Below are positions 2,113 through 59,208 of a DNA stretch of 64,000 nucleotides, piece by piece. Under the pieces are notes generated by a model. It saw only the letters and a program-made list of their open reading frames with translations. It was not told the DNA's origin and searched no databases. A program made the position numbers and the translations under genes. Source of the DNA: a bacterium BMS3Bbin08 (GTDB lineage Bacteria; Nitrospirota; Thermodesulfovibrionia; UBA6902; BMS3Bbin08); NCBI GenBank assembly GCA_002897775.1, contig BDTR01000042.1:61280-125279 (forward strand), written 5' to 3'. How positions within the stretch are numbered: the first letter of the stretch is position 1; the number at the start of each line of letters is the position of its first letter.

Positions 2113-2642
2113 TCCTCTACCTCCCCTTTGCGGAGCTCCAAAACGATTTTTTTGGGTTTTAGTTCTCCTTTATAATCCTGTATATATTCCTCTATCACTA
2201 ATTTTGTCAGATCGATCTCCTTAACTTTCCCTTCATTCAGGCCAAGCACAGCGCCTTCTTTTACAGTATAAGACTTATTGTCAGGCGCCAGAAGCAGGGC
2301 GGTATACACCTGACCTTTTGAAGCAACCGCTATCAGCCTGAAGTCCGCCGCGGCATAATTCTCAAGCGGGGACAAAGCAGCCCCCCTTTTTGCGCGGTTT
2401 TTCTTTGGAACGGCCTGAACAAGAGCCACGAACGGATCGCGTCTGCCCGCGGGATCATAAATGTATTTCTTTCCCTTCTCCTCTTCCGCGGGAACTTCAA
2501 GGATCACCTTTGGCTCCGGTTTGACCACGGCCTTCGGAGCGGCTGCCTTTGTCCCGGGTTTAACAGGCGCTTTCTTTTTGCAACCCGTAAACACAGGGAA
2601 AATAAATAGGATAACCACCATAATTAAAAACAGTTTTTTCAT
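2109..2642 (-). CDS. pilP: Type IV pilus assembly lipoprotein PilP
   Basis: 177 aa, signal peptide plus lipobox (FTGCKK), RDPF motif typical of PilP; 4-bp overlap with pilQ. Confidence 0.65.
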   Translation of the reverse strand: MKKLFLIMVVILFIFPVFTGCKKKAPVKPGTKAAAPKAVVKPEPKVILEVPAEEEKGKKYIYDPAGRRDPFVALVQAVPKKNRAKRGAALSPLENYAAADFRLIAVASKGQVYTALLLAPDNKSYTVKEGAVLGLNEGKVKEIDLTKLVIEEYIQDYKGELKPKKIVLELRKGEVEE

Positions 2643-2673
2643 CTTGTCCTGTTCCTTCTTTGTCCCTTATCCT

Positions 2674-3303
2674 TTACCTGGACACAGCCGCGCCTGTCGG
2701 AGATCCCTCTGCCGCCGCGTCATATACCGCGGAGAACGTACTCGCGGTAAAACTGGCCTTGATCAGATCAGAGTAATTTCCCCCAGCCTTTTGTATCTTT
2801 ATATTTGAGATATTTACGATCCTTTTTATACGGCTGATATAACTGAAAAAGACCCCCAGGTCATGATACCCGGCCACGATCTCCATTTTTACCGGTATCT
2901 CCGTGTAAACACCTTTGGGGTCAGGCTTTTTGTTCTCTGGTTTCCACAAAAGAATCACCAGCCCCGACTTAAGTCCGAGGTCTGATATCTGTTTAAGCAG
3001 GACCGAGACTTCATTTTCCTCGGGCATTTGCTGCCTCAGCCCCACAAGCAGTACTTTCAGCCTTTCCGCTTCGGCCCTCAGCTCATCCAGCTTCCTTACT
3101 TTGACCTTTGCGGTCGCTATATCATTATCCAGCTTTGCTATGCCGGCCTCCAGGATCTTTATTTCCTTGTTCATCGGAGAATATTTGACCGTCAGGAACA
3201 GCACTACCAGTACCACGGCAGGCACCACTATAATAATGATTTTCAGGAATTGGGGTATATTTCTTGATTTCAGATCAATTGCCATTTTACACCTTGATAT
3301 CAA
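2674..3303 (-). CDS. pilO: Type IV pilus assembly protein PilO
   Basis: Single N-terminal TM helix, coiled-coil, position between pilN and pilP. Confidence 0.65.
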   Translation of the reverse strand: MISRCKMAIDLKSRNIPQFLKIIIIVVPAVVLVVLFLTVKYSPMNKEIKILEAGIAKLDNDIATAKVKVRKLDELRAEAERLKVLLVGLRQQMPEENEVSVLLKQISDLGLKSGLVILLWKPENKKPDPKGVYTEIPVKMEIVAGYHDLGVFFSYISRIKRIVNISNIKIQKAGGNYSDLIKASFTASTFSAVYDAAAEGSPTGAAVSR

Positions 3304-3826
3304 AAGTTAATATGAACTTGTAAACAGAAATATCTCCGATCGCTTCCTTGCGGGACTCAACCAGAGCCACTTCCGACAGGTATTTGGAGCCCTTCAGTTT
3401 CTGAACATAATTAACAAGTTCGTAATTTGAGAACGCGAAACCGCTCACGTTTATTTTCGTTCCGGAGTGGCTCAGCGCTGTAAGCCATACTCCCCTGGGC
3501 AGCTGCGTGCTTACCTCATCAAGAAGCCTGAGAGGGATGTCCTGGTTCTTTTTTAATTGTTTGATGATCTCGGCCTTTTCCTTAAAAGAGGCCACGAGTC
3601 TCTCATAGCTTTCGACCTCTTTGAGCTTTGTCTGCAGCGCGGCCAGTTCCACCTGCCTGGCCGCCTTTTCGGCCTTTAGACCGGTGATCTTGTTGCCGAG
3701 GAAGTACCAGGTAAAACCGATTGCCACACACACGGCGACCGTTACGATAAAAGAAAATATATAATGCGGCGGTATGGGCTGCGCTTTTTTCTTACGTTTT
3801 ACTCCAAGGAGGTTTATTCTTATCAT
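3287..3826 (-). CDS. pilN: Type IV pilus assembly protein PilN
   Basis: 179 aa, N-terminal TM (FIVTVAVCVAIGFTWYF) followed by coiled coil; overlaps pilM stop and pilO start. Confidence 0.7.
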   Translation of the reverse strand: MIRINLLGVKRKKKAQPIPPHYIFSFIVTVAVCVAIGFTWYFLGNKITGLKAEKAARQVELAALQTKLKEVESYERLVASFKEKAEIIKQLKKNQDIPLRLLDEVSTQLPRGVWLTALSHSGTKINVSGFAFSNYELVNYVQKLKGSKYLSEVALVESRKEAIGDISVYKFILTFDIKV

Positions 3827-4884
3827 CTGTCCCCTACCCTCCTTAGCGCCAGCCCGGCGGCAACCGCCATAAGAGGGCCTGTTTTCTTTATATATCCGAT
3901 GTCAAACGAATCCGGGACATGGATGTTCCTGAAGGGTTCAATGACCTTGACATTTATCCCGATCCGCTCCGACAGAAGAGGGACAAAGTCCTTGACAAGG
4001 GCGCAGCCGCCGCTCAGGACGATCTCATTGATCTCCTCCTGGCTCGTGGCCCCTCTGAAATAGTCAAATGACCGGGAGATCTCTGTAATTATATCTTCGG
4101 AAGCAGAGGTTAACACAGACGCGACCTCTTCCAGGGAAACCCCTTCAACCGCCTCTCCCTGCTTCAGCCGTTCAGCATCGTCGAATGAAACGGTAAACCC
4201 TCTCTGAAGGGCCTCTGTGTGAAGGTTGCCTCCGACAGAGCTGTCCCTTGTAAAGATCGATGTGCCTCCCTTAAGGATATTTATATTGATAGTACCTGCC
4301 CCTATATTAACAAGGGCTATATTGTCTTCCGCGTTGATATCATAATTTATCTCATACATGTTCTCCAGGGCAAAAACATCAACATCAACGATCGCGGGAT
4401 TGAAACCGGCCTCGCGGACAACGGATACGTACTCGGTTATCTTGTCCTTCTTGACCGCCACGATCATGACATCCATCTGATTCCCTTCCTCGCGCTGTCC
4501 CAGGATCTGGAAATCAAGGTTCACGTCTTCGATATCAAACGGGATATACTGTTCCGCCTCGAACTTGATGGACTCCTGCAGTTCTTCCTCGGTCATCTGC
4601 GGAAGGGCAACCCTTTTTATAATGACCGAGGAGTGGCCGGATACGCCGAGCGCCACGTCCTTTATACGGAAATTTTTCTCGGCAATAAGTTCTTTGATGG
4701 TATCTACAACCCGGAGGGAGTCAAGGATCGAACCGTCTACGATAAGTTCGGGAAGGATGGGGGCCATACCCAGATTTTCCAGTTCGTATCCGTTCTTGAC
4801 TTCTTTTAGCTGAACGGCTTTGATCTCTCTCGAACCGATATCAAGGCCTATTATTCCCTTGCCGCGTCCTCCGCCAAATAACAT
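3823..4884 (-). CDS. pilM: Type IV pilus assembly ATPase-like protein PilM (actin fold)
   Basis: 353 aa, N-terminus GIIGLDIGSREIKAVQL and actin/FtsA-like fold motifs; first gene of the operon. Confidence 0.85.
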   Translation of the reverse strand: MLFGGGRGKGIIGLDIGSREIKAVQLKEVKNGYELENLGMAPILPELIVDGSILDSLRVVDTIKELIAEKNFRIKDVALGVSGHSSVIIKRVALPQMTEEELQESIKFEAEQYIPFDIEDVNLDFQILGQREEGNQMDVMIVAVKKDKITEYVSVVREAGFNPAIVDVDVFALENMYEINYDINAEDNIALVNIGAGTININILKGGTSIFTRDSSVGGNLHTEALQRGFTVSFDDAERLKQGEAVEGVSLEEVASVLTSASEDIITEISRSFDYFRGATSQEEINEIVLSGGCALVKDFVPLLSERIGINVKVIEPFRNIHVPDSFDIGYIKKTGPLMAVAAGLALRRVGDR

Positions 4885-5088
4885 AGTTCTATCAATATCA
4901 AAAAAGCATTATATTGTCAAGCTTTTTCTGGTACGTCAGAACCGGCGACTGTGTCAGGAAGCGCCGGCCCGCGGCAGGAACCATAAATAAACACAGCGCG
5001 GGCGCCGGGCTTTAATCTCCGGTCCGTTGACAAACCGTTTAAAATAATTTTAAACTTTCCTGTACAACATATTTTAAAATAAAAATAA

Positions 5089-6384
5089 ATGCTCGCGGAA
5101 ATCTTAGAAACAACACCAACAACAAGAAAACTGAAGATAAATATCCCCGCTTCCGTTATCGAAGAGGAGATCGCCGGCGCCTACGGCAGGCTCAGGGCAA
5201 GCGCGAAAATACCCGGCTTCAGGACCGGCAAAGTACCGCAGGCCATCCTTGAGAAGAAATTCAGCAAAGATATCGAAAGCCAGGTCATAGAAAAGATATT
5301 GCCCGAGTTTTACTCAAAGGCCGTCAGGGAAGCGCGGATAATGCCGGTCTCCTACCCTGATATAGACGGCGGGACCGAACTGGTAAAGGACCGGCCCGGC
5401 TCAAACCGTTACAAGCCGCTCTCCTTCACCGTCACCGTTGAAGTAAAGCCCGAAATAAAAGGCCTCAACTACGAGGGCATCGCGCTTAAAGAGCAGCCGT
5501 TCTCTGTAAAAGACGAGGAAGTGGATACGGCCCTTAAGAGCCTGCGGCAAAGCAGGGCTGTGCTGAAAGTTTTTAAAGGGCCTTTAAAAAAAGGGGACAT
5601 GGCTGTCATAGACTGCGATGCCTTTATAAACGGCAAAGAGGTCACAGATCTGCGATCAAAGGATCATCCTTTTATCCTTGGTTCTCAGGCGATGCCCAAA
5701 GAGTTCAGCGATAACCTGGCAGGCAAAAACAAAGAAGACAGCCTTGAGTTCACGATAAATTTCGAGGCCGGCCTGCCGAACAGTACCATTGCCGGGAAAG
5801 AGGTCCTTTTCAAGGTCTCCGTAAAAGAGATAAAAGAGAGCGTGCTCCCTGACCTGGACGACGGGTTCGCGAAGAGTTTCAACTCTGCCGGCATGGAGGA
5901 GCTCAAAAAGAACATAACCGGGAACATAGGCAAACAGAAAAAGGACAAAATAAACAGCGAATACAAAAAAGAGATCGTGGAACACCTGGTCAGTACCCAT
6001 GAAATTGAAGCGCCCGGCTCCATGGTACAGATGGAACTTAGCTCCCTGATGGACGAGGCAAAGCAGAACGCCATGAGCACGGGTAAGGCCGTTAGGACCG
6101 ATGAAGAGCTGAGGAAGGAACTTGAACCGGCGGCGCATAAGAACGTAAAAGTAATGCTGATACTGGATGCTGTCGGCAAAAAAGAAAAGATCGAGGTAAG
6201 CGAAGATGACGTCAGGCAGGCAGTGGAAGAGGTAGCAACCCGGCACAATATAAAACCCGAGGAAGTGAAAAAGCTGTATATAGCCAAAGAGGGTTCTCTG
6301 GAAGGGTTGAAACACAGGCTGTATTCAGGCAAAGTCCTGGAATTCCTGATGTCTAAAGCATCTATTGAAACAACCACAGATTAA
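5089..6384 (+). CDS. tig: Trigger factor (ribosome-associated PPIase chaperone)
   Basis: 431 aa; ribosome-binding N-domain (GFRTGKVP), FKBP-like middle domain; conserved tig-clpP-clpX order. Confidence 0.9.
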   Translation: MLAEILETTPTTRKLKINIPASVIEEEIAGAYGRLRASAKIPGFRTGKVPQAILEKKFSKDIESQVIEKILPEFYSKAVREARIMPVSYPDIDGGTELVKDRPGSNRYKPLSFTVTVEVKPEIKGLNYEGIALKEQPFSVKDEEVDTALKSLRQSRAVLKVFKGPLKKGDMAVIDCDAFINGKEVTDLRSKDHPFILGSQAMPKEFSDNLAGKNKEDSLEFTINFEAGLPNSTIAGKEVLFKVSVKEIKESVLPDLDDGFAKSFNSAGMEELKKNITGNIGKQKKDKINSEYKKEIVEHLVSTHEIEAPGSMVQMELSSLMDEAKQNAMSTGKAVRTDEELRKELEPAAHKNVKVMLILDAVGKKEKIEVSEDDVRQAVEEVATRHNIKPEEVKKLYIAKEGSLEGLKHRLYSGKVLEFLMSKASIETTTD

Positions 6385-17000: not shown

Positions 17001-17120
17001 TATGAGCTACAAGCTATGTATTTACCCCAGCCTGTCCCGTGGTCCAAGTCCAATTGGACTTTACGGGATAGTTTTAGGTTCGCCCTTTTTAAGAAGAACC
17101 TTACGGGGAGCTATGAGCTA
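17001..17120 (+). repeat. Interspersed hairpin repeat family X, full copy 1 (core CCCCGTGGTCCAAGTCCAATTGGACTTTACGGG)
   Basis: About 105 bp, about 98% identical to 49687-49789; contains palindrome GTCCAATTGGAC inside a CCCGT...ACGGG stem. Confidence 0.85.
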
Positions 17121-28256: not shown

Positions 28257-30461
28257 CTATTTAGACCACATTTGCGTACGGGTATAATCAACAGCTACTT
28301 CCGATTTCCCCTCAACGATAAAACCCATTCTTTTGCCAAGAGGGGATAAATCCGAAACTTCACCGAGATAATTATCGTTTAAGTAAAAGCGCATCGTAGT
28401 ACCCTGTTTTTCCAACTTAAGAGTATTGAAGGAATTTTTCTGGAAAACCATGTCCTTTATCTTTCCGCTGGCCAGTTCCTGTGGAACGCCTTTGTAATAC
28501 CTCTTGATAAAATATAACCCATTTGAGCTGATCTGAAACGTATAATTATTGCCGGCATCTTTAGCGCCCATCACATATCCATAAGAGTGGTTGCCAGAAG
28601 CCCTCACTGTTTTCATAGCAACCTCTACTATGAACTTCCTGTCAAGAGGAAAATCATAAGCATTCAGCGTGACGTATTTGCCTCTCTCGCTTTTGTTCTC
28701 GATATAATACTTCCCGTTTTCTATCCGTGCAGAAGCCATGGTTGTATTGAATGTCTCCCAAGTCTTATCCTCATTATTATCGAATTGAGTCTTATATAGC
28801 ATGAACATTTCGCTCGGAGACTTGGAAGTTGGTTTTTCAGGTTTAAGGCTAGCGAGAAGTTCTTTAGCAGCCTCTTCCTCGGCAAGCTTTGCAGCCTTTT
28901 TCCTGGCAGCCTCTTCCTCGGCAAGCTTTGCAGCCTTTTCTTTGGCAGCCTCTTCCTCAGCAAGCTTTGCAGCCTTTTCTTTAGCAGCCTCTTCCTCGGC
29001 AAGCTTTGCAGCCTTTTCTTTGGCAGCCTCTTCCTCGGCAAGCTTTGCAGCCTTTTCTTTGGCAGCCTCTTCCTCGGCAAGCTTTGCAGCCTTTTCTTTG
29101 GCAGCCTCTTCTATCTCAACAGCCTCAGGTAAAAGTGTCCTGTCATATTCAGCCTTCCTGCCCGGATCAGACAGGTGTTCATGCGCCTCTGTAATATATG
29201 AGAATATTGCGGTCAGTTTCCCCTTCAGGTCGTCCTGGTCGTCAGACGGCAGGGCAAAGTGCCTGTCCGGGTGGAACTCCTTTGATTTGCTGTAGTATGC
29301 CTTGCTGATCTCTTCAGCAGACGCGTTTTTTTCAGTGCCGAGTATACCGTAATATCCTATGGACCACAGCTTTTTAAGTATGTCTTCCACTTTATTCAGG
29401 AACTCAGGCGTGATCTCTTCAGCCGGTTCTTTTATGATCTCTTCAACGTCTTCGATCTTGAGCTCCGCAGGCGCTCTTTCTTCTTTCCTGACAGCGATCA
29501 TCCCTATGCTGAGAAGGGCGCAGATGGTTTTGAGGGTATCGGGTTCAGGCAAAAGTGAAAGCGACAACACGGTTTTTAATGAACGTTTGCCATCTATACA
29601 GGAAAGGATCGCCTTGTCAGATCCATCAAGTTTGACATCCTGAAAGATGTTCATCGGGCTGGGCGAAAGATCAAGCACTGCCGTCAGAGGCGGGATTACC
29701 TTTTTTATGTGAAGGATATTATTAACGTTTTTGATACCGTTGCATATAATATTTGCGGCACTGATCCTGAGAGTTATCAAATCGTCTGAAGAAAGAGAGC
29801 CTTCATGGAACCTGAACTTGCCGGTTTCCATGGCAAAAAGACTGAGTATGATCTCCTCTATCTGATGCTGTACCGCGACAAAGACCTCTTTTGGTTTTAG
29901 GCATCCGAGCTCTACAAGGACCTTGCCCAGCTTGCTCCCGCTTTCTTCAGATAAACCGCGCGCCTTGTCAAATTCTTCCTGGCTGATCCTTTTTTGCCTT
30001 ACAAGAAGTTCTCCAAACCCATCCTCTTTGTAATTGGACGAGGCAAATATCATGTCCCCGTTCCTTATGAAGACCTCCTTGATTACCGAGCCGCTCGCAA
30101 CCCTGAGAACCCCTGTTTTTGTGCTCCTCTGCAGGCCGATCAGCACATCTGCCAGTGCAAAGCTCTTTAAAGAGCCCTGAAGGCTGTCCAGTCTTTTGAA
30201 CCCCACCCTGAGTTCATCGTCTGTTTTGTTTACCCATGCGACCTCGCCCCTAAACTGTATCTCAGGGTCAAAGACCTTTACATCCGCCTGTGTGCCGACA
30301 GTAAGCTTCGGGGCATTCTCAAAAACCGCGCCAAGCCCGTCCGAATAGTCAAGTACTCTGCCTCTATAGGTCTCTGAGCCTACCTTTACCTCACACTCAG
30401 ACCGGCTTTCATATCTTTTAAAATGTCTTCTGTCCTCATCGCTCATAATTAAATTATACAA
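28257..30461 (-). CDS. Multidomain PilZ - DUF4388 - J-domain (DnaJ) protein with EEAAKEKAAKLAE x7 coiled-coil repeats and C-terminal beta-domain
   Basis: N-terminal PilZ (RRHFKR...DYSDGLG), DUF4388 (SLKSFALADVLIGLQRSTKTGVLRV), J-domain with HPD (YYGILG...EFHPDRH), seven 13-aa repeats, C-terminal jellyroll-like domain. Confidence 0.7.
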   Translation of the reverse strand: MYNLIMSDEDRRHFKRYESRSECEVKVGSETYRGRVLDYSDGLGAVFENAPKLTVGTQADVKVFDPEIQFRGEVAWVNKTDDELRVGFKRLDSLQGSLKSFALADVLIGLQRSTKTGVLRVASGSVIKEVFIRNGDMIFASSNYKEDGFGELLVRQKRISQEEFDKARGLSEESGSKLGKVLVELGCLKPKEVFVAVQHQIEEIILSLFAMETGKFRFHEGSLSSDDLITLRISAANIICNGIKNVNNILHIKKVIPPLTAVLDLSPSPMNIFQDVKLDGSDKAILSCIDGKRSLKTVLSLSLLPEPDTLKTICALLSIGMIAVRKEERAPAELKIEDVEEIIKEPAEEITPEFLNKVEDILKKLWSIGYYGILGTEKNASAEEISKAYYSKSKEFHPDRHFALPSDDQDDLKGKLTAIFSYITEAHEHLSDPGRKAEYDRTLLPEAVEIEEAAKEKAAKLAEEEAAKEKAAKLAEEEAAKEKAAKLAEEEAAKEKAAKLAEEEAAKEKAAKLAEEEAARKKAAKLAEEEAAKELLASLKPEKPTSKSPSEMFMLYKTQFDNNEDKTWETFNTTMASARIENGKYYIENKSERGKYVTLNAYDFPLDRKFIVEVAMKTVRASGNHSYGYVMGAKDAGNNYTFQISSNGLYFIKRYYKGVPQELASGKIKDMVFQKNSFNTLKLEKQGTTMRFYLNDNYLGEVSDLSPLGKRMGFIVEGKSEVAVDYTRTQMWSK
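28858..29112. repeat. Seven near-perfect 39-bp tandem repeats (coding EEAAKEKAAKLAE)
   Basis: GCAGCCTCTTCCTCGGCAAGCTTTGCAGCCTTTTCTTTG repeated head-to-tail on the plus strand. Confidence 0.85.
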
Positions 30462-44729: not shown

Positions 44730-45110
44730 GTGTTCTATAAAATAATTGCTGACATTGTTGTTCTGCTTCATTTCCTGTGGATAATATTCCTTGTCTTCGG
44801 TGCGCTTATCGGCAGGCGGCACAAAGTGGTAAAAGTCCTGCATATCCTGGGAATGGGATTTGCAATTATCATTCAGATCTTTGGATGGTACTGCCCCCTG
44901 ACATATCTTGAGGTCTGGCTCAGGCGGACGTATGATCCATTACACGGATATGCCGGCTCATTCATAATAAATTACGTCCAGAAGCTTGTATATATTGAGC
45001 TACCGGGAAATACGATCCTCTTAGCTACAATTTTCCTTGTACTGGGGTCTGCCTTTATTTATATGTACCCCCCCCCCGTTAGATCCGGTGAGAAAACACC
45101 CCGCATCTAA
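44730..45110 (+). CDS. DUF2784-like small membrane protein
   Basis: 126 aa, 4 TM, HFLWIIFLVFGAL...CPLTYLE pattern. Confidence 0.4.
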   Translation: MFYKIIADIVVLLHFLWIIFLVFGALIGRRHKVVKVLHILGMGFAIIIQIFGWYCPLTYLEVWLRRTYDPLHGYAGSFIINYVQKLVYIELPGNTILLATIFLVLGSAFIYMYPPPVRSGEKTPRI

Positions 45111-45200
45111 GAATACAGATCACGGGGCTGGCGCCGTTAGATCCGGTGAGAAAACACCCCGCATCTAAGAATACAGATCACGGGGCGGACGCCGTAAGAT
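45065..45200. repeat. Tandem direct repeat, about 62 bp x 2.2, each unit with CCCCG...CGGGG hairpin
   Basis: CGCCGTTAGATCCGGTGAGAAAACACCCCGCATCTAAGAATACAGATCACGGGGC repeated; overlaps 3' end of the DUF2784 ORF. Confidence 0.7.
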
Positions 45201-45268
45201 CCAGAAAAAAATAGACAGTCCCGGACTTTAGGGCAAGGGTAAAAAACAAGGTGGGAGAGGGTTCGGTC

Positions 45269-45661
45269 TTAATCTTTTAACGCTTCGGCTACACGCATCC
45301 TGTTATATTCCTTAAGGTTGTCTATGAGCTCATCATGTGACAGTACCCTGGTTTTCACAAGGGCCTCGCCGAAAAAAATATAGCTGTCAGGCTGTTCTTT
45401 CAAAAGTTCATCAACCTGGCTCTTTGTCAGAAAATTTTCCCTGACCGCTATGGCGCCGAATTTTTCATGTGTCTCTTCCTGAATGATCAGGACCCTTTCA
45501 ATATCCTCTTCTGTCAGCCAGCCTTTTTTTTTGGCCAGCTGCCCTATCCTGAGGTTGATCTCTTTCTGCAGCAGCCTGGCCTTAAAAACACCTTCCCTGT
45601 CTATAAGGCCTTTACCCATCAAAAACTGCCCGAAAAGCATGTGATATCTGGATTTTCCCAT
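45269..45661 (-). CDS. Small protein with tandem T2SS-E N-terminal (MshEN-like, putative c-di-GMP binding) motifs
   Basis: Three about 25-aa repeats of FG.FLM.KGLI....V..A.LLQKE form (FGQFLMGKGLIDREGVFKARLLQ; FGAIAVRENFLTKSQVDELLKEQ; FGEALVKTRVLSHDELIDNLKE). Confidence 0.35.
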   Translation of the reverse strand: MGKSRYHMLFGQFLMGKGLIDREGVFKARLLQKEINLRIGQLAKKKGWLTEEDIERVLIIQEETHEKFGAIAVRENFLTKSQVDELLKEQPDSYIFFGEALVKTRVLSHDELIDNLKEYNRMRVAEALKD

Positions 45662-49680: not shown

Positions 49681-49792
49681 TATGAACTATGTATTTACCC
49701 CAGCCTGTCCCGTGGTCCAAGTCCAATTGGACTTTACGGGATAGTTTTAGGTTCGCCCTTTCAAGAAGAACCTTACGGGGAGCTATGATTTG
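49681..49792 (+). repeat. Family X full copy 2
   Basis: See copy 1; abuts the family Y inverted repeat. Confidence 0.85.
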
Positions 49793-49912
49793 CATTTATG
49801 GAATTGTTTGCGATTAACGAATAACTATTAACCCCGTAAAGTCCACAATTGTCGTGACTAGACTACGGGGCAGGCGTATAACGGTCATTTTGTCTATGAG
49901 CCATGAGCTATC
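49784..49912. repeat. Family Y repeat, left arm of a 9.3-kb inverted pair
   Basis: About 125 bp; reverse complement at 59085-59208 is about 97% identical; core CCCCGTAAAGTCCACAATTGTCGTGACTAGACTACGGGG related to family X. Confidence 0.85.
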
Positions 49913-50011: not shown

Positions 50012-52000
50012 ATGAATCGTTTCAAACTAACTTCTGACTTCAGGCCCGAAGGAGATCAGCCCCAGGCTATAGAAGAGCTTACAGAGGGCGTTCAAAAGGG
50101 CCTGAGACATCAGGTACTGCTTGGCGTCACAGGCTCGGGCAAGACATTTACCATTGCCAATACAGTCGCAAATGCGAACAAGCCGACCCTGGTCATAGCC
50201 CATAATAAGACCCTTGCCGCGCAGCTCTATGGAGAGTTCAGGGCATTTTTCCCTGAGAACGCGGTGGAATACTTTGTCAGCTATTACGACTACTACCAGC
50301 CCGAGGCTTACCTGCCCTCATCAGACACATACATTGAAAAAGATTCGTCGATCAACGAAGACATTGACAGGATGAGGCATTCGGCAACCCGCGCTGTTCT
50401 TGAAAGAAGCGATACCATAGTGGTCGCGTCTGTTTCATGCATATACGGCATCGGCTCGCCTGAAGATTATCTCGGCATGCACCTTTTTATTGAAGAGGGT
50501 ATGCATATTGAAAGAGACGCGTTCCTGAGAAGGCTTGTGGACATGCTCTACGAACGCAGGGAGGACTTCACAAGGGGCGTGTTCAGGGTAAGAGGGGATA
50601 TAGTCGAGATATTCCCTTCTTTTTCAGTTGATAACGCGATCAGAGTCGAGTTCTTCGGTGACGATATTGACGCGATCTACGAATTTGATTCTTTAACAGG
50701 CAGGGTCATCAAACAATTTTCAAAGTTCGCCCTGTTCCCCAACAGTCACTGGATCACTCCAAGATCAAGGCTTGACGCGGCCATGACCTCGATCAATGAC
50801 GAACTCGAGCAAAGGATCGATTTTTTCATTAGAGAGAATAAACAGCTTGAGGCTCAAAGGATCGAGCAAAAAACCAGGTTTGACCTGGAAATGTTAAAGG
50901 AATTCGGCTACTGTCACGGGATTGAGAATTATTCAAGACATCTGAGCGGCAGGGCTTCGGGTGAACCATCGTTCTGCCTGATAGATTATTTTCCGGAGGA
51001 CTTTCTAATAATAATAGACGAGTCCCACGCAACCATACCACAGATCGGCGGTATGTATCAGGGAGACCGCTCAAGAAAACAGACCCTTATTGACTTCGGC
51101 TTCAGGCTTCCGTCAGCGCTTGATAACAGGCCCCTTAAGTTCAGGGAATTTGAGCAACGCATAAACAATGCGATATACATATCCGCAACCCCTTCCGAGT
51201 ATGAGATCAGGAAGTCAAACCACAGGGTGATCGAGCAGATAGTCAGGCCTACCGGCCTTACAGACCCTTCTGTGGATGTAAGACCTGTAAGGGGCCAGCT
51301 CGATGACCTGCTGGGAGAGATCAGGGAAAGGGCTGATAAAGGTGAAAGAGTACTGGTAACCACCCTGACCAAGAAAATGGCAGAAGACATTACCGAATAC
51401 TATAAAGAACTTGGGCTTAAGGCGAGGTATCTGCATTCCGATATTGATACTATAGAGAGGGTTGAAATACTTAGAGACCTCAGACTCGGAGAGTTTGATG
51501 TACTCATCGGTATTAACCTGTTAAGAGAAGGACTTGATCTTCCTGAAGTCTCACTCGTCGCTGTCCTTGACGCGGACAAGGAAGGTTTCCTGCGCTCTGC
51601 CCGCTCCCTTATTCAGACCTCAGGCCGTGCCGCGAGGAATGTAAACGGCAAAGTCATTTTTTATGCTGACACAATCACCGGATCCATGCAGACAGCTATT
51701 GATGAATCAAACAGGCGGCAGAAGATCCAGCTGGAATATAACAAAAAGAATAAAATAACTCCTAAATCAATCATCAAAGATATAACTAACGTCCTCAGTT
51801 CAATATACGAGGCTGACTACTGGACAGTCCCGGCGGTTGCAGACGAGAAGGTTGAATACACGGACGAAACAGGCATTAAACAGCTTGAAGATGAGATGAA
51901 ACAGGCGGCTGATAAACTCGAATTCGAAAAGGCAGCGGAACTGAGAGACAGGATAAAGGCAATCAGGAACAGGCAGATTGAGGTAGGGATAAAGACATAG
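50012..52000 (+). CDS. uvrB: Excinuclease ABC subunit B
   Basis: Walker [11 protein letters not shown], beta-hairpin, helicase motifs, C-terminal UVR domain. Confidence 0.95.
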
Positions 52001-52126
52001 TTGAAAGGATAACCCTTCACAATTTTGCTTTTGCACCAGCTCCTGTCTACCGACAGGAAGACGCAGGGGCAAGCAAAATGAACCGTGAGGGCTGAAGGAG
52101 TTGAAAGTTGCCTTGATTCGACCTTA

Positions 52127-52852
52127 TTATGGATTAAAAGTCTTAATATGCGCATGGCAACTTGATTTTGTGCACGTTCTTCCCCATTGATGGCTGTGCC
52201 CGCCACCACCGCCTCCACCGCCGCCTCCACCGCCGCCACCACCGCCGCCTCCGCCTCCGCCGCCGGAGGTGTTGCGATGCCTCGCGGTTTGTGTATGGCA
52301 GGTGTCACAGACACTGTCGTAGTACCCGTTGCCATCCTGGTCACGATCGCAGAAAGAATGCAGGGTTGGATCCCCAACATCCGTGCCGCGGTTTTCAAAA
52401 ACCACATGTCGGATCCCGCTGTTAGGGGTGTTAATTTTTGTATAGCCGGAGGCGTCCAGGTCTGAATCCCCCACCATCTTGATATTAGTGCCGGTTCCAT
52501 TACCATTACAGTTGCCCGGACACCAGTTGTCAAAGGCCAAAACTTCCCCTTCATGCGGGTTGTGGCATTCTCTGCACGTTATCTGCCACACACCATAATC
52601 AGGAGAACTGTCATTCGGGTCGTTCTCATGGACTTCCACCTGGGTAGCGTTTCCTCCGGGCCCGTGACAGCTCATGCACAGGGCTTCTATAGATGCGGGT
52701 GATCCCGTTAACAGAAAATAAGACGGGCTGCCGCCATGAATGTCATGGCAAAAATCACATTCATGAACCCGGGCATTACCAATACCCGGCAGGAAAAAAA
52801 CAATGCCCGATAAAACAAATGTAAAAACTAATGACCGGAGAAGATACCTCAT
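52127..52852 (-). CDS. Secreted tetraheme c-type cytochrome with 23-residue poly-glycine tract
   Basis: Signal peptide; four CxxCH (CDFCH, CMSCH, CRECH, CDTCH); G23 linker encoded by mixed GGN codons; 4-bp overlap with upstream NHL gene. Confidence 0.65.
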   Translation of the reverse strand: MRYLLRSLVFTFVLSGIVFFLPGIGNARVHECDFCHDIHGGSPSYFLLTGSPASIEALCMSCHGPGGNATQVEVHENDPNDSSPDYGVWQITCRECHNPHEGEVLAFDNWCPGNCNGNGTGTNIKMVGDSDLDASGYTKINTPNSGIRHVVFENRGTDVGDPTLHSFCDRDQDGNGYYDSVCDTCHTQTARHRNTSGGGGGGGGGGGGGGGGGGGGGGHSHQWGRTCTKSSCHAHIKTFNP

Positions 52853-53826
52853 GGTATCACACCTCCCCCTGGATACGCCTCTATCCGTCTGGGACGGTTA
52901 TTCGTGACAAAAACATCTTCTGTCGCCGGGTCAATTATAATATCCAGGGGCAAAAACAGCTGTCCGGGGTTAGAACCAAAGCTGCCAATTGTCTTTACGC
53001 CGGCAAATGTCCCGCGGTTGAACACAAGGATCTTACCCAAAACGGATTCCACCATAAAGATGTAGTTATCACTTACTGCAATACCCTGCGGACTTGCGAA
53101 TTCATAGCCACTGGCCACATCTTCTGCTGAAAACCCGCCGAGGTAGTTGCCCGCATAATTGTAAATCTTTAATCGCGCGGGGATTTCAGCAGAGTCAGAC
53201 GGGTTACCGAAATCCGTTACAAATATCTCCTGGGCATTTTCATCTACTGCTATGCCTCTCGGGCTAACCAGAAGTTCAGGATCTGCCCCTGTCCCGCCTA
53301 TTGAGTACAGAAATTGTCCATCTGTTCTGAAGACCTTTATAAGCCCGTCATTGCTATCCACAACAAATACCATATTCTGTGTTTTATCAATTGCGATATC
53401 ATTCGGCTTTTTTACATTCCCTTTGGTGCCGCCCAGATCGTATAGCCACCAGCCCTGCAAGGTGTAAGCTTCAACTGTTCCGGTTGATTCATTGCCGACA
53501 AAAACAATGTCAAAAAAAAGACTGTCCAAAAAAGCGACTGCCAGCGGTCTCCCCGCGACGGGAAAAGAACTGATCATCTTAAGATCTGAGCTGTCAATTA
53601 TGTATATTCTCTTCCGGAAATAATCAGAAACAAGGAGGTTGCCGTCTGAGGTAAAATCAATCCTGACAGGAGAGCGTATGGATATTGGTTTATCACCAAT
53701 ACCGCCTTCCCCGGTCATGCTGTCGTCGCTTCGGCATGATTGAAGGCCTGCGGCCAGGAATAAAACAAGAGGAACAAACAAAACCAGAAGCCAGGCATGA
53801 AAGTTCCCTTTAAATGTCCGCTTCAT
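52849..53826 (-). CDS. Secreted NHL-repeat beta-propeller protein
   Basis: Signal peptide; repeated (S/P)xGIAVD...IFV(V/T)D NHL blades x about 6. Confidence 0.7.
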   Translation of the reverse strand: MKRTFKGNFHAWLLVLFVPLVLFLAAGLQSCRSDDSMTGEGGIGDKPISIRSPVRIDFTSDGNLLVSDYFRKRIYIIDSSDLKMISSFPVAGRPLAVAFLDSLFFDIVFVGNESTGTVEAYTLQGWWLYDLGGTKGNVKKPNDIAIDKTQNMVFVVDSNDGLIKVFRTDGQFLYSIGGTGADPELLVSPRGIAVDENAQEIFVTDFGNPSDSAEIPARLKIYNYAGNYLGGFSAEDVASGYEFASPQGIAVSDNYIFMVESVLGKILVFNRGTFAGVKTIGSFGSNPGQLFLPLDIIIDPATEDVFVTNNRPRRIEAYPGGGVIP

Positions 53827-53967
53827 ATCAGCCCCTTTTATTTAGTTTAACCTTATAAAACAATATGAGTCAACAAATCTTAATTCTTATCAGGGTCTTA
53901 ATGATAGGAAGGCGGTATTATGCGGGGTCTAACTATACGTTTTTTCAGCTTTTATTTATACTTAATC

Positions 53968-54519
53968 TTATTCCTCAAGCAGTTTTCTCAGTTCTTTGGT
54001 CTCTTCCTCAGTCAGCTGCATTGAAGACTCTTTACCTTTCATCATCGCCATGGCCTTGTCAAACTGTGTCCTGAAAATCCCGGCGGTATCTGCAAAGCCC
54101 TGCGCAACAGCCTCGGAGTATGTCAGGGCGGTCCTGATGCTCTTTGTTGCTTCTTCTTCATTGCCTCTATGGGCATAGGCGGTTCCCCTTCCGAAAAAGG
54201 CCGCGCCGTGGTCTGGTTTCAGCTTTATAACTCTGTCAAAATCGGCTATCGCCTTTTCATATTCCTCTTTTGCCAGAAGTGCTATGCCGCGATAGTAATA
54301 GGCCCTGTAGTTCTGGTCGTTCAGACCTGTTACAGCGCCAAAATCCTTAACAGCATTATCATATTCGTTCATTTTAAAATATGCCGCGCCGCGGCTCAGG
54401 CACGCGATCTCCGTGTGCTCTCCCGCATCTATGATCTTTGTAAAAACCTCCACACTCTCTTTGTATTTGCCCTCCAGGAAAAAACGCTGAGCATCGCCTA
54501 ATAATTCCTTTATGTCCAT
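53968..54519 (-). CDS. TPR-repeat protein
   Basis: Four or five TPR units (W-LG-Y-A-F-P patterns: AYYYRGIALLAKEEYEKAIADFDRVIKLKPDH...). Confidence 0.65.
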   Translation of the reverse strand: MDIKELLGDAQRFFLEGKYKESVEVFTKIIDAGEHTEIACLSRGAAYFKMNEYDNAVKDFGAVTGLNDQNYRAYYYRGIALLAKEEYEKAIADFDRVIKLKPDHGAAFFGRGTAYAHRGNEEEATKSIRTALTYSEAVAQGFADTAGIFRTQFDKAMAMMKGKESSMQLTEEETKELRKLLEE

Positions 54520-54697
54520 TTACAAACCTCCTTAAAGACCAGCCATGCCGAAAACAGATTTATTCTTTTCTATGAAAACACAGCGTTTCCCATTAAAGCA
54601 AGCTGATATGTAAGGCCAATGATCACATATACTGGTTTTGATGTTATAATCTGGAAAAAGAATTGCGTATTAAAGCAAAAGCGCAAAAACACTGAAA

Positions 54698-54772
54698 TGA
54701 TAAAAGCGGTTATGTTTGACTTTGGAGGGGTCCTGGCAGAAGAATGTCTCAGCCTGATCGAACAGTCATAAT
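54698..54772 (+). pseudogene. Remnant of a HAD-family hydrolase gene (motif I only)
   Basis: Encodes MIKAVMFDFGGVLAEEC then stops after 24 codons; HAD motif I DxDGxL-like context without remainder of gene. Confidence 0.25.
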
Positions 54773-54828
54773 AAGACGCGGGCATTCAGTCAGGTGATCC
54801 AGCAGGTTCTTAAACTCTTCTCAGGCTT

Positions 54829-55137
54829 TTATTCCTTTGGTACATACGGTCCGGGTGTGAATGCAGGGTCAATGAAATAGGCCTCTTCAAAATACTTTAT
54901 TGCCTCATCGTGCCTTCCAAGCTTATAGAGCGCGTAGCCCAGGCGGTAATACGCGGGTGCTGCAGGGTGCTCCTCGACATACTCTTCAAAATATTTTATT
55001 GCCTCTTCGAATTTTCCGGTGTTGTAGTACTTCAGCCCTTCTTCATATGAATCATCGATCTGGGCAAGAGCCGCAGCTGACAGCATGAACAGCATTAAGA
55101 ACATTGAAATTATAAAAACCCATGTTTTCATAAACAC
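54829..55137 (-). CDS. Small secreted TPR-like protein
   Basis: Signal peptide, two TPR-like units (YYNTGKFEEAIKYFEEY.., YYRLGYALYKLGRHDEAIKYFEEA). Confidence 0.5.
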   Translation of the reverse strand: MFMKTWVFIISMFLMLFMLSAAALAQIDDSYEEGLKYYNTGKFEEAIKYFEEYVEEHPAAPAYYRLGYALYKLGRHDEAIKYFEEAYFIDPAFTPGPYVPKE

Positions 55138-55284
55138 CTCCTGAAATGATGTTTTAATATAATTTCTTAAATATTACCACATAATCATAATATATCATAT
55201 AACAAAATAACCCCGGCCAATATAACGAATTTTCGGCCCTTTGACCGCCGGAACTTTAAACTGGAACTGGGTTATAATCTTTTT

Positions 55285-57123
55285 ATGGATATCAGGGGAA
55301 AATTACAGCAGGCGCCCTCTTCTCCCGGTGTTTACGTCATGAAAGCCGCCGGGGACCGTGTTATTTACGTCGGCAAGGCAAAAAACCTGAAAACCAGGCT
55401 GAGGTCATATTTCCAGAAGTCCGCTTCTCTTGACGCCCGGAAAAAAAGAATGGTCAGGGAGATACGGGATTTTGACTGTATCGTAACCAGGAACGAGCTT
55501 GAGGCGCTGGTGCTCGAGGCAAACTTCATAAAAAGGTCAAAGCCCAGATACAACATAATCCTCAGGGACGACAAAAACTATCCTTATCTCAAGCTGACAA
55601 TAAACGAAAAATGGCCGAGGCTTGAAGTAGTCAGGAGGATCGCCAAAGACAGGGCGGTTTATTTTGGCCCATATGTACCGTCAGGCAGTATGTGGGAGAT
55701 ACTGAGGTTCATAAGGCGCAATTTCCCCCTCAGGACATGCAAATTTAATCTCGATAAGCCCTTCAGGCCGTGCGTCCAGTACCAGATAGGAAGATGTCTC
55801 GCGCCGTGCGGAAAAGATTTTCGAAAAAAGGCGGATGAAGACAGGTACAGGGAAGTGGCCGACGAGGCAAAACTTTTTCTGCTCGGACACAAAAAAGAAC
55901 TCCTTTCAGGCCTTGAGGACAAAATGAGAACATATTCGGATAATCTGAAGTTCGAGCGGGCCGCAGCCATAAGGGACAGGCTCCGGGCAATTGAGCGGGC
56001 GTGGGAGTCACAGCGCGTAATATCACCTGAACTTGGAGATATGGATGTCATAGGCCTTCACATGGAAGACAATGAAGCCTCCGTGTTCCTGCTCTTCATA
56101 AGAAACAACATGGTTATCGGACAGAAAGATTTTTTGCTGAAAAAGACGGCGGGCTTAAGTAACAGCGAGCTTATTGAGGGCTTTATAGAGCAGTTTTATT
56201 CAAAGGAGATGATCCTTCCTCCAAAGATACTGCTTCCCTTTAAAGCAAAGCTTGATACACAGAGACGCTGGCTAAACGAAAAACGGAAAGATAAGGTCGT
56301 AATTGCAGACACAAAAAGCAGGGCAGAGAAAGAGATCATGAAAATGGCTCTGGACAATGCCTGTCACTCCTTTATAAGGCATAGGGAGTTAAAGGCCTCT
56401 CCGGCTGTAAAACAGGCCCTTCTGTCGCTTAAAGACCTTTTGAAGCTGAAAACCGTTCCGCGCAGGATCGAGGCTGTCGATGTTTCAAATCTGTCCGGTT
56501 CAGAAGCGGTCGGAGCTGTTGTTGTATGGGAGGACGGGGTCTTTATCAGGGATGACTACAGGCTCTATAAAATAAAAACAGTAACAGGGATCGATGATTT
56601 TGCTATGATAGAAGAAGTATTGATAAGATATTTCAAAAAACTTTCTGATGGAGAAAGAAAATTGCCTGACCTGATACTTATAGACGGCGGCAAAGGACAG
56701 CTCGGGTCCGCTTTAAACGCGATGAAACAGTTCAAACTGCCTGTGATGATCGCTGCCATTGCAAAAGCAAAGACAGGCAGGGCCGCAATGGCAGCCGCGC
56801 AGAAAGACAGGATATTTTTACCCCGTGAGAAAGAAAAACGATTGGAACCTTTTCTGGCCTCAACTCACCTGCTCCAGAAAATAAGGGATGAAGTGCACAG
56901 ATCTGCCATAACGTTCCACAAAAAACTACGCGCCAGGAGGGTGCTTGAATCCCCGCTGGAAAAGATCAGGGGCATAGGCAAGAAAAGGAGGCTCCTGCTA
57001 TTAAGGCACTTTGGGAGTTTAAGCGCCATTAAAAAGGCGTCGGTCGATGAAATAGCGTCTTTAAAAGGCATGAACAAAAAAATCGCTGAAATTTTAAAGT
57101 CGTCCCTGCAGGGGATGAAATAA
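55285..57123 (+). CDS. uvrC: Excinuclease ABC subunit C
   Basis: N-terminal GIY-YIG (GVYVMKAAGDRVIYVGKAKNLKTRLRSY), UVR domain, RNase H-like and C-terminal HhH domains. Confidence 0.95.
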   Translation: MDIRGKLQQAPSSPGVYVMKAAGDRVIYVGKAKNLKTRLRSYFQKSASLDARKKRMVREIRDFDCIVTRNELEALVLEANFIKRSKPRYNIILRDDKNYPYLKLTINEKWPRLEVVRRIAKDRAVYFGPYVPSGSMWEILRFIRRNFPLRTCKFNLDKPFRPCVQYQIGRCLAPCGKDFRKKADEDRYREVADEAKLFLLGHKKELLSGLEDKMRTYSDNLKFERAAAIRDRLRAIERAWESQRVISPELGDMDVIGLHMEDNEASVFLLFIRNNMVIGQKDFLLKKTAGLSNSELIEGFIEQFYSKEMILPPKILLPFKAKLDTQRRWLNEKRKDKVVIADTKSRAEKEIMKMALDNACHSFIRHRELKASPAVKQALLSLKDLLKLKTVPRRIEAVDVSNLSGSEAVGAVVVWEDGVFIRDDYRLYKIKTVTGIDDFAMIEEVLIRYFKKLSDGERKLPDLILIDGGKGQLGSALNAMKQFKLPVMIAAIAKAKTGRAAMAAAQKDRIFLPREKEKRLEPFLASTHLLQKIRDEVHRSAITFHKKLRARRVLESPLEKIRGIGKKRRLLLLRHFGSLSAIKKASVDEIASLKGMNKKIAEILKSSLQGMK

Positions 57124-58291: not shown

Positions 58292-59083
58292 ATGAACATT
58301 GAAACTCTCAGAAATATCGGAAAACAGCTGAGACAGGAGATCCCTCCCCTTGCAGTAAAACCTCACGGCACCGCTCCGATCGGCAAGGGTGCGGGCGGTG
58401 ACATGACCTTTGCGGTTGATAAAAAAGCTGAAGAGATCATTTTTAAGGAGATAGAAAAACTCAATGAGCCGGTCACCCTGGTGTCAGAAGAACACGGCAT
58501 TAAGGATATAAAAGGCGGCGGTCCAAATATCCTCATAGACCCCATAGACGGCAGTAAGAACGCCGTATCAGGCATACCTTTTTTCTCAACATCCATCGCG
58601 ATCGTGAATGGGGACACGCTGGGTCATATATCCATGGGTTATGTGATAAACCTTATTAACGGCGATGAGTTCTGGGCTGAAAAAGGTAAAGGAAGCTTTT
58701 TAAACGGCGTCCCTGTAAGAACACAGGAGGATGAGGTTCTTAATGTTATTGCGTACGAGGCTCAGACGCCAAAAGTGCACATACCTGAAATTCTCCCTCT
58801 GCTTTCACTTTTCAGAAGAACAAGGTGTCTTGGTTCAACAGCACTTGACCTGGCGCTCCTGGCAGCCGGGGCTGTAAGCGTGTTCGTTGCCCCTGCCCCT
58901 TCAAGGAGCTTTGACCATGCCGCTGGATATTTGCTGGTAAGAGAGGCGGGCGGGATCATTACTGACCTCAATGGAGAAGATATTGACAGTGTTCCCGTTG
59001 GGATAAAAAGGACGGTCGCGCTTCTTGCCTCAGGGAATAAAAAACTGCATTTTAAGGCCCTGGCGGCCTTAAAACGCTCATAG
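58292..59083 (+). CDS. Inositol monophosphatase / fructose-1,6-bisphosphatase family protein
   Basis: Metal-binding motifs EE..., IDPIDGSKN, WDHAAG-like (FDHAAGYLLVREAGG). Confidence 0.8.
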   Translation: MNIETLRNIGKQLRQEIPPLAVKPHGTAPIGKGAGGDMTFAVDKKAEEIIFKEIEKLNEPVTLVSEEHGIKDIKGGGPNILIDPIDGSKNAVSGIPFFSTSIAIVNGDTLGHISMGYVINLINGDEFWAEKGKGSFLNGVPVRTQEDEVLNVIAYEAQTPKVHIPEILPLLSLFRRTRCLGSTALDLALLAAGAVSVFVAPAPSRSFDHAAGYLLVREAGGIITDLNGEDIDSVPVGIKRTVALLASGNKKLHFKALAALKRS

Positions 59084-59084
59084 C

Positions 59085-59208
59085 TGATAGCTCATAGACA
59101 AAATGACCGTTATACGCCTGCCCCGTAGTCTAGTCACGACAATTGTGGACTTTACGGGGTTAATAGTTGTTCGTTAATCGTAAACAATTCCATAAATGCA
59201 AATCATAG
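59085..59208. repeat. Family Y repeat, right (inverted) arm
   Basis: Reverse complement of 49784-49912. Confidence 0.85.

Follow-up and report, generated by a model that had tools for sequence, protein, structure and literature searches.

A translationally coupled gene pair for an NHL beta-propeller and a predicted pentaheme cytochrome with a glycine-repeat expansion in a deep-sea Nitrospirota bacterium

What a long, uninterrupted run of glycines is doing inside a small multiheme c-type cytochrome, and what the secreted beta-propeller encoded immediately before it contributes, are the questions raised by positions 52127 to 53826 of a 64,000-nucleotide (nt) stretch of DNA from the Nitrospirota bacterium BMS3Bbin08 (assembly GCA_002897775.1, contig BDTR01000042.1, positions 61,280 to 125,279). 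We refer to this whole stretch as the window and give coordinates in it. According to the open reading frame (ORF) listing, the minus strand of this region contains two overlapping ORFs. The first encodes a 325-amino-acid (aa) six-bladed NHL beta-propeller (52849..53826), identified from its ORF, its Pfam matches, and a match to the Protein Data Bank (PDB), whereas the second encodes a 241-aa c-type cytochrome (52127..52852), identified from its ORF, its Pfam matches, and its relatives. The reading that we favor, and consider probable though far from certain, is that the two form a translationally coupled propeller-pentaheme cassette in which the propeller serves as a scaffold, and that the glycine tract is a tolerated repeat expansion rather than a tether.

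The stop codon of the NHL gene and the start codon of the cytochrome gene share 4 nt (ATGA, 52849-52852), an overlap that an earlier model-made interpretation of the letters alone, here called the sequence-only reading, had already described. The 3′ end of the NHL coding sequence contains a Shine-Dalgarno sequence, GGAGG, which can be read directly from the letters 9 nt before the cytochrome ATG (52862..52866, minus strand). Upstream of the NHL start by 18 nt lies a sigma-70-like promoter match (TTGACT-18-TAAACT; 53844..53873, minus strand); it is a weak one, agreeing with the consensus at 9 of 12 positions, and 8 promoter-like sites were found in the scanned region versus 5.3 expected. The match hints that the NHL-cytochrome pair can be transcribed on its own. 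In comparisons with the closest relative, the ratio of nonsynonymous to synonymous substitution rates (dN/dS) was ~0.30 for the cytochrome and 0.35 for the NHL gene, and both cassette genes are under purifying selection. Our analysis shows that the locus is a two-gene cassette, an NHL propeller gene and then a translationally coupled gene for a small cytochrome that is predicted to be pentaheme and to reside in the periplasm or envelope.

The sequence-only reading had described the second protein as a tetraheme cytochrome with a signal peptide. By inspection, a signal peptide can be read from the sequence (aa 1 to 27, MRYLLRSLVFTFVLSGIVFFLPGIGNA; 52772..52852, minus strand), although it may possibly be an uncleaved N-terminal anchor, and all aligned homologues, again judged by inspection, have a hydrophobic N-terminal segment equivalent to that of the window cytochrome, so this part of the description holds up. 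The four CxxCH motifs are likewise present, at aa 32, 59, 93, and 182, all on the minus strand: CDFCH (site 1, aa 32 to 36, 52745..52759), CMSCH (site 2, aa 59 to 63, 52664..52678), CRECH (site 3, aa 93 to 97, 52562..52576), and CDTCH (site 4, aa 182 to 186, 52295..52309). In an alignment of 85 sequences, C32, C35, and H36 of site 1 are invariant, as are sites 2, 3, and 4. The tetraheme assignment, however, overlooked a fifth site, CTKSSCH (aa 227 to 233, 52154..52174, minus strand), a Cx4CH motif that is followed by an invariant histidine, H235. C227 and H233 of this site never vary, and conservation of C232 is 90% or more.

Spacing at site 5 varies among 87 family proteins (Cx2CH in 71, Cx3 in 5, Cx4 in 10, and Cx5 in 1). 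Since it is an ordinary CxxCH motif in 71 of these 87 proteins, the variably spaced site is likely a genuine heme site. CxxxxCH heme sites are known from cytochrome c3, such as the tetraheme c3 of Desulfovibrio, and a Cx4CH motif can bind heme c. Given that this fifth conserved site stands beside the four CxxCH motifs, the window protein is predicted to be a pentaheme rather than a tetraheme cytochrome. Five further histidines that are conserved in the 85-sequence alignment (H39, H75, H100, H221, and H235) would be enough for the predicted bis-His ligation of five hemes. Conservation in this alignment extends to each of the five heme motifs, which settles the concern, raised with the sequence-only reading, that they might not be conserved in relatives.

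The cytochrome belongs to an uncharacterised family of ~190- to 215-aa proteins whose public labels go no further than "predicted CXXCH cytochrome family protein" or "cytochrome c3 family protein." A first search returned 46 relatives and a profile search more than 90 full-length ones, all of them metagenomic or from metagenome-assembled genomes (MAGs). The window cytochrome scored above the cut-offs of Pfam Paired_CXXCH_1 (PF09699; 29.4 bits versus 20.6) and TIGR01905 (27.5 versus 25.2). It fell under that of class III cytochrome c3 (PF14537/PF02085; 22.1 bits for Cytochrom_c3_2 versus 25) and far under those of the DmsE-family (17.9 bits versus 192) and GSU2203-family (18.6 versus 325) models, and the Geobacter CxxxxCH...CXXCH domain TIGR01904 was not among its NCBIfam matches at E ≤ 1. 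The C-terminal CSNVYCH-type units carried by long homologues, such as that at locus L028, are missing from the window protein. The middle region of the protein is beta rich (NIKLVG...VVFESRG...LHSF.D.D.DGNG) and has no counterpart in MtrA. An AlphaFold2 (AF2) model of the cytochrome reached only a moderate mean predicted local distance difference test (pLDDT) score of 62.9, with most residues outside the glycine tract at 60 to 76; this model, which is not of confident quality, matched no fold among solved structures.

The pairing with a propeller recurs far beyond the window. At all eight loci that we looked up (8/8), the end of the NHL gene coincides with the cytochrome start or is at most a few bases away from it. 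A genome scan yielded 50 loci, and in ~42 of the 44 at which the match covers most of the cytochrome and sequence is present upstream, an NHL ortholog with 30 to 46% identity lies directly upstream on the same strand. The scan loci belong to Nitrospirota, Myxococcota, Acidobacteriota (including Aminicenantes), Planctomycetota, Gemmatimonadota, and Hydrogenedentota, as well as to Desulfuromonadales, Desulfobulbaceae, beta- and gammaproteobacteria, Spirochaetota, and Flavobacteriales. The cassette is found in more than eight phyla and, among the relatives found, only in uncultured bacteria: no named protein of a cultured organism was among them, and the genome scan comprised MAGs and one single-cell genome. 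When Desulfuromonadales members were used in a profile search for a link to Gmet_0557-type proteins, the search returned unnamed metagenomic proteins and then local matches to DmsE-type decahemes.

A single reading frame encodes both propeller and cytochrome in at least three cases (P0033, L028 [2561-5626], and L030 [1-2082]). The L028 and L030 fusions have dockerin-like repeats (DVD.SG..DAVDVQLV.N.ALGL) and a hydrophobic segment between the two parts, and their cytochrome part runs on into heme domains with CSNVYCH-type motifs. These fusions constitute Rosetta-stone evidence for a physical partnership and, together with the pairing at ~42 of 44 loci, bear out the earlier suggestion that the propeller is the likely partner of the coupled secreted cytochrome. 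In many lineages, the pentaheme unit forms the N-terminal module of 540- to 1000-aa proteins with 11 to 15 hemes, and the propeller gene still precedes it. At two Aminicenantes loci (L001, 8767-10740, and L007, 6719-8680), the pair is directly followed by a gene for a ~655-aa membrane protein in which multiheme c motifs are combined with a Ni_hydr_CYTB cytochrome-b domain, and an Rnf/Nqr-like cluster lies further downstream; the cytochrome-b neighbor points to a connection with the quinol pool.

Divergence from the closest relative (L005) is uneven along the window locus. The 3′ half of the NHL gene and the 5′ half of the cytochrome gene (52544-53391) are 95.4% identical in DNA, whereas the 3′ end of uvrB (51757-52009) is 83.4% identical. 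Recombination or transfer of the cassette between lineages might account for this.

That the first gene encodes a secreted six-blade NHL protein, as the sequence-only reading had proposed, is confirmed by its Pfam scores (NHL, PF01436, 47.4 bits versus a cut-off of 20; DUF5128, "6-bladed beta-propeller," 51.6 versus 22.9), by its PDB matches to the NHL domains of TRIM3 and TRIM71 (E values of 2.5e-21 to 4e-20), and by a signal peptide. This signal peptide ends in LQSC, which resembles a lipobox with Cys31, and the propeller is probably a lipoprotein. Six hydrophobic-x-D/N blade motifs are located near aa 66-68, 110-112, 155-157, 203-205, ~252, and 307-310, and most of their positions are conserved at ≥85% in 45 propeller orthologs. 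An identical propeller has been deposited as GBE06736.1 ("NHL repeat protein [bacterium BMS3Abin10]") and also as Nitrospirae/Nitrospirota MAG proteins.

Six-bladed propellers of the lactonase/SGL or pyrroloquinoline quinone (PQQ) type are enzymes, and the cassette could accordingly be read as a catalytic propeller with the cytochrome as its electron carrier. The propeller family gives faint Pfam matches to SGL, Lactonase, and Arylesterase, although at scores under the cut-offs, and the tight translational coupling and the fusions fit an enzyme-cytochrome pair equally as well as a scaffold. However, the 45 orthologs share no conserved His or Cys and no obvious set of metal or cofactor ligands; 26 of their 35 residues with ≥85% conservation are Gly, Pro, or Asp. 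Since this conservation pattern favors a scaffolding or binding function over catalysis, and since the closest solved relatives are non-catalytic TRIM-NHL binding domains, which we counted in favor of a scaffold role, we regard a catalytic propeller as unlikely. In the scaffold reading that we prefer, the propeller would act as a non-catalytic scaffold or anchor that holds the cytochrome at a membrane surface, where its five hemes, probably bis-His ligated, would carry electrons between donors that are periplasmic or quinol linked and a partner that is outer or insoluble.

Propellers encoded next to multiheme cytochromes have been described before. In Geobacter metallireducens, the NHL protein Gmet_0556 adjoins Gmet_0557/0558, needed for Fe(III) oxide reduction and direct interspecies electron transfer (DIET); in Desulfovibrio ferrophilus, DFE_0451 and DFE_0463 are NHL/beta-propeller proteins beside multiheme cytochromes; and UetH/I represent a propeller-cytochrome pairing in Tenderiales ("Ca. 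Tenderia") and Gallionella. The omcE nanowire clusters, too, have beta-propeller lipoproteins as constant members: these clusters are said always to include a pair of them, together with two more multiheme cytochromes and a large beta-barrel of the outer membrane. Nitrospirota are among the bacteria with OmcE homologues. The literature views such propellers as mediating protein-protein interaction or as stabilizing partners. Like all of these systems, the window has a gene for a secreted or lipoprotein six-bladed propeller directly beside one for a secreted multiheme cytochrome. Unlike clusters for extracellular electron transfer, it has only two genes and one small pentaheme cytochrome, with no porin or beta-barrel, peptidyl-prolyl isomerase (PPIase), or further cytochrome within the 64 kb. 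No porin-like or extra cytochrome gene that would indicate a porin-cytochrome conduit (MtrCAB/Pcc type) is adjacent, and the profile searches found no full-length relatives among named Geobacter, Desulfovibrio, or Tenderia proteins. By analogy, then, the window cassette resembles the propeller pairings of extracellular electron transfer, albeit without demonstrably being a member of any of them.

Likenesses of the cytochrome itself to known proteins are local. It shares with the MtrA/DmsE decahemes (PF09699/TIGR01905) a doubled motif, H-x-C-x-x-C-H-x-x-H ... C-x-x-C-H-G; the family profile matches MtrA in the PDB (6r2q chain A, E value of 1.3e-8), and DmsE-family decahemes are the next-best database matches after the family itself. 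In contrast to MtrA, with which the similarity spans ~30% of the protein, the window cytochrome has five instead of ten hemes, includes the beta-rich middle region, and lacks a porin partner. The Cx4CH site is a feature in common with cytochrome c3, from which the protein differs in having five sites and another size and architecture.

The omcE clusters raise the further question of whether the cytochrome could be an OmcE-like polymerizing nanowire subunit, with the propeller lipoprotein belonging to the machinery that assembles or anchors it. The two proteins are similar in size (~200 aa) and heme number, the family profile matches OmcE (7tfs, E value of 4e-6) and the OmcE filament of Desulfuromonas soudanensis (9yuq, E value of 1.6e-6), and both the propeller lipoproteins of these clusters and the OmcE homologues of Nitrospirota would be in keeping with such a role. 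However, the profile matches to MtrA, both OmcE structures, and OmcS span no more than a paired-CXXCH motif of ~30 to 70 residues; those to OmcE cover ~30 residues, and MtrA shares this motif with a better score. The window cytochrome has no full-length homology to OmcE and no structural match, and the omcE gene set is not seen at the window, where there is a single propeller, the flanking genes include no beta-barrel or second propeller, and the 64 kb encode no CxxCH protein besides the window cytochrome. A nanowire subunit is therefore, in our view, highly improbable.

The glycine tract of the cytochrome comprises 22 residues (aa 197 to 218; 52199..52264, minus strand; read from the sequence), replaces the "SGG" of the family, and lies two residues before the invariant His221. 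The sequence-only reading had counted 23 glycines and placed them between heme motifs 3 and 4, but all four CxxCH motifs precede the run, which separates site 4 from CTKSSCH. Its codons are indeed mixed (11 GGC, 6 GGT, 4 GGA, and 1 GGG), as had been pointed out, yet this does not rule out a repeat origin: Tandem Repeats Finder (TRF) identified a 12-nt unit present in 4.9 copies with 89% matches. The unit, AGGCGGCGGTGG on the coding strand and CCACCGCCGCCT on the plus strand, corresponds to four GGN Gly codons, and the Gly codons are mixed because this longer repeat unit is degenerate. The codon mix of the tract does not differ from that of genomic Gly codons (P = 0.24), which argues neither way. 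For the G-rich mRNA of the tract, formation of a G-quadruplex or an effect on translation is conceivable. In the 64 kb, the tract is the only stretch of six or more GGN codons, and no amino-acid run of five or more residues was found in 24 long ORFs of the window; a Gly run this long cannot arise by chance. ORF 51817-52554, previously set aside as a strand-inverted artefact, is spurious as stated but lies on the same strand as the cytochrome gene in another frame. Like the plus-strand ORFs 52162-52425 and 52187-52465, it is a spurious reading of the GGN repeat.

Is a GC-rich, low-complexity stretch of this kind an artefact of assembly or sequencing? The exact 241-aa cytochrome is encoded on 12 contigs of public assemblies, including Logan SRR7787013, SRR7787324, and DRR093002; ENA ERZ1742235; and the NCBI MAGs GCA_011040835.1, GCA_011041285.1, and GCA_011040335.1. 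Seven other assemblies, made with different pipelines and representing at least three separate sequencing runs, have the same in-frame 66-nt tract with identical flanks. They are 99.92 to 99.95% identical to the window over 4.9 to 6.7 kb, with only 3 to 4 mismatches in 5.6 to 6.7 kb, 3 of which are synonymous third positions in consecutive tract codons (positions 609, 612, and 615 of the coding sequence). At codons 203 to 205, the window allele is GGC GGT GGT, whereas the common allele is GGA GGC GGA. These mismatches could be due to a single intra-repeat conversion or slippage event, or to a different resolution of the repeat by the assembler; the length and reading frame of the tract are reproducible whichever the cause, and the tract stands out as the single variable place of a locus that is clonal elsewhere.

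Since the window differs from all other assemblies at these three codons, the exact order of the repeats is uncertain; this counts in favor of an artefact, as does the end of the GCA_011041435.1 contig 179 nt before the tract. Nevertheless, with the tract reproduced in seven assemblies, an intact frame, and an undisturbed conserved heme site at the C terminus, an artefact is extremely improbable, and these data show that the tract is genuine DNA, as the sequence-only reading had maintained. The truncated MAG contig, DRCE01000255.1 (L064), is otherwise 100% identical to the window and stops at window position 52443; because of this truncation, the public record of its cytochrome is limited to a 136-aa partial protein, ENG75_05650. 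A search of JGI metagenomes for variants in tract length, using flanking anchors and a 48- to 78-nt gap, gave no match.

Around the tract, the consensus of the family is C-E/D-T-C-H-T-x-T-x-x-H-R-N-x-x-S-G-G-H-x-H-x-x-G-x-T-C-T-x-C-H. The spacer between sites 4 and 5 measures 19 to 26 residues at 45 of 45 scorable loci, and among 87 proteins it varies from 9 to 34 with a mode of 21, versus 40 in the window cytochrome. The closest relative (P0001/L005), 78% identical in protein sequence, has no tract. It carries SSRGMY (TCT TCC AGG GGT ATG TAC) there, the local residues being SSRGMYHSH, and its DNA aligns closely on both sides of the tract. No Gly run of six or more residues was found among the ~130 other family members examined. 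Matches with Gly runs returned by phmmer (P0083, P0147, P0154, P0189, and others) have no CxxCH motif and were discarded as low-complexity noise. The sequence-only reading had linked a general absence of the tract from homologues with an assembly error; the absence is borne out, since no homologue has the tract, yet the sequence is real. Given that a close relative lacks the tract and that family spacers are short, the expansion is recent and lineage specific. We conclude that an in-frame expansion of a 12-nt GGN repeat, as shown here, arose in one near-clonal Nitrospirota population of deep-sea sulfide deposits (the BMS3A sample comes from a sub-seafloor massive sulfide deposit).

With regard to function, the tract had been proposed to tether a heme module flexibly to another module. 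The protein, however, ends 23 residues after it (HSHQWGRTCTKSSCHAHIKTFNP). This remainder contains heme site 5 and two invariant histidines, is integral to the domain, and in homologues is connected to site 4 by a short spacer. Since it belongs to the family fold, the protein lacks a second module that could be tethered, and the tract is a loop insertion inside one compact domain. In the AF2 model, pLDDT in the tract drops to 30 to 40. In P0077, another member of the family, an unrelated insertion lengthens this loop between sites 4 and 5 to give a spacer of 34 aa. At the loop after heme site 3, P0001 carries a different, Cys-rich insertion that is 17 residues longer (SSACATSAPRTPFCNKCWDTNECNQGVGQPGEG), and this loop appears from the alignments to be a second hypervariable site of the family. 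These two insertions imply that loops of the family accept insertions, and the glycine tract is most likely a disordered surface loop that is tolerated rather than an inter-module tether that was selected. The window cytochrome also has an extra Cys pair, CPGNC (aa 111 to 115, 52508-52522), in common with P0003 (CPDNC).

Selection could nonetheless have acted on the tract if it served as a leash that lets the heme-5 peptide reach a partner (the propeller, a cytochrome, or a mineral) or thread a narrow channel. The tract is real, in frame, and predicted to be disordered, and it has the same length in every assembly, with only synonymous differences. A precedent may be seen in LapA of Pseudomonas fluorescens, an adhesin of the type I secretion system (T1SS) that is anchored in an outer-membrane pore; poly-Gly linkers are reportedly discussed in connection with it, and the likeness to the window cytochrome would be a long uninterrupted Gly run in a secreted envelope protein. 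LapA, however, is a giant adhesin of unrelated architecture, whereas the heme domain that contains the window run is 200 aa long and none of its relatives has such a run. The leash also has to contend with the conserved single-domain fold that includes the 23 residues after the tract, with spacers of typically 19 to 26 aa in other members, and with the ~130 family members, among them the 78%-identical one, that do without such a tract. Furthermore, the assemblies are near clonal (99.9% identical), so conservation of length carries little weight, and the repeat structure fits slippage. A selected leash is thus decidedly unlikely. We give still less credence to a bolder proposal, namely, that the cassette is a widespread, minimal, porin-independent device for placing a heme wire on a membrane and that, in this lineage of metal-sulfide deposits, the 22-Gly insert is adaptive, allowing a mobile heme 5 to reach a partner or mineral up to several nanometres away; this is very unlikely.

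Several points weigh against the reading of a scaffolded cassette with a tolerated insert. The tract lies two residues from His221, which is likely a distal heme ligand, so that an effect on heme 5 is possible. An identical tract length in all assemblies would also be expected under selection on length, although this identity says little because the assemblies are 99.9% identical overall. The placement of the tract in a surface loop derives from the moderate AF2 model described above, which matched no solved fold, and should be taken as provisional. Localization, heme count, and partner are all predicted from sequence for every family member. Finally, the window cassette stands alone among uvrB, uvrC, and a GGDEF gene, and the 64 kb provide no second CxxCH protein that could act as donor or acceptor.

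The genes flanking the pair are uvrB, two tetratricopeptide repeat (TPR) genes, uvrC, and a GAF-GGDEF gene. The window pair is isolated among housekeeping genes, a setting that it shares with the pair at about half of the loci. The TPR genes had been described as following the pair, one of them encoding a lipoprotein-like product. Instead, both lie upstream on the minus strand, and neither product fits that description. The 183-aa TPR protein (53968..54519, minus strand) has no signal peptide, and the 102-aa one (54829..55137, minus strand) has a signal peptide ending in ...AALA/Q but no lipobox Cys. Both were identified from their ORFs and Pfam matches and are listed as neighbors only. We rejected them as part of the system, as they are not beside the pair at the eight homologous loci with called genes. 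They are present in contigs of the same species, and the weak promoter-like site separates them from the NHL gene. An Rfam scan of 51000-56000 gave no match.

The window contains other repeats. The intergenic stretch between the GGDEF gene and uvrB is 97 to 98% identical to two other intergenic places of the window, one of them inverted (copies at 49687-49911, 59080-59208, and 17014-17116), with 7-nt periodic runs nearby; this dispersed repeat may be a small element resembling a repetitive extragenic palindromic sequence or a miniature inverted-repeat transposable element (REP/MITE-like). A second and much stronger coding repeat is located at 28860-29111, within a 734-aa ORF (28257-30461, minus strand), where an in-frame 39-nt unit is repeated in tandem in 6.5 copies with 94% matches (TRF score of 462). 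At 45076-45202, a 58-nt tandem repeat (2.2 copies, 95% matches) lies mostly between ORFs 44730-45110 and 45269-45661 and reaches 35 nt into the 3′ end of the former.

Pairing of propellers with cytochromes was already known, albeit mechanistically unexplained; the result of broader use is a widespread, uncharacterised NHL-propeller/pentaheme cassette. Propellers recur beside outer multiheme cytochromes in Geobacter, Desulfovibrio, Tenderia, and the omcE clusters, and the cassette is the simplest form of this pairing. With two coupled genes and natural fusions, it offers a tractable system for the effect of the propeller on the cytochrome. As for the glycine tract, it is chiefly a curiosity, a natural experiment in which a loop beside a putative heme ligand tolerates a 22-residue disordered insert, and it also serves as a warning that such Gly tracts in metagenome assemblies can be genuine.

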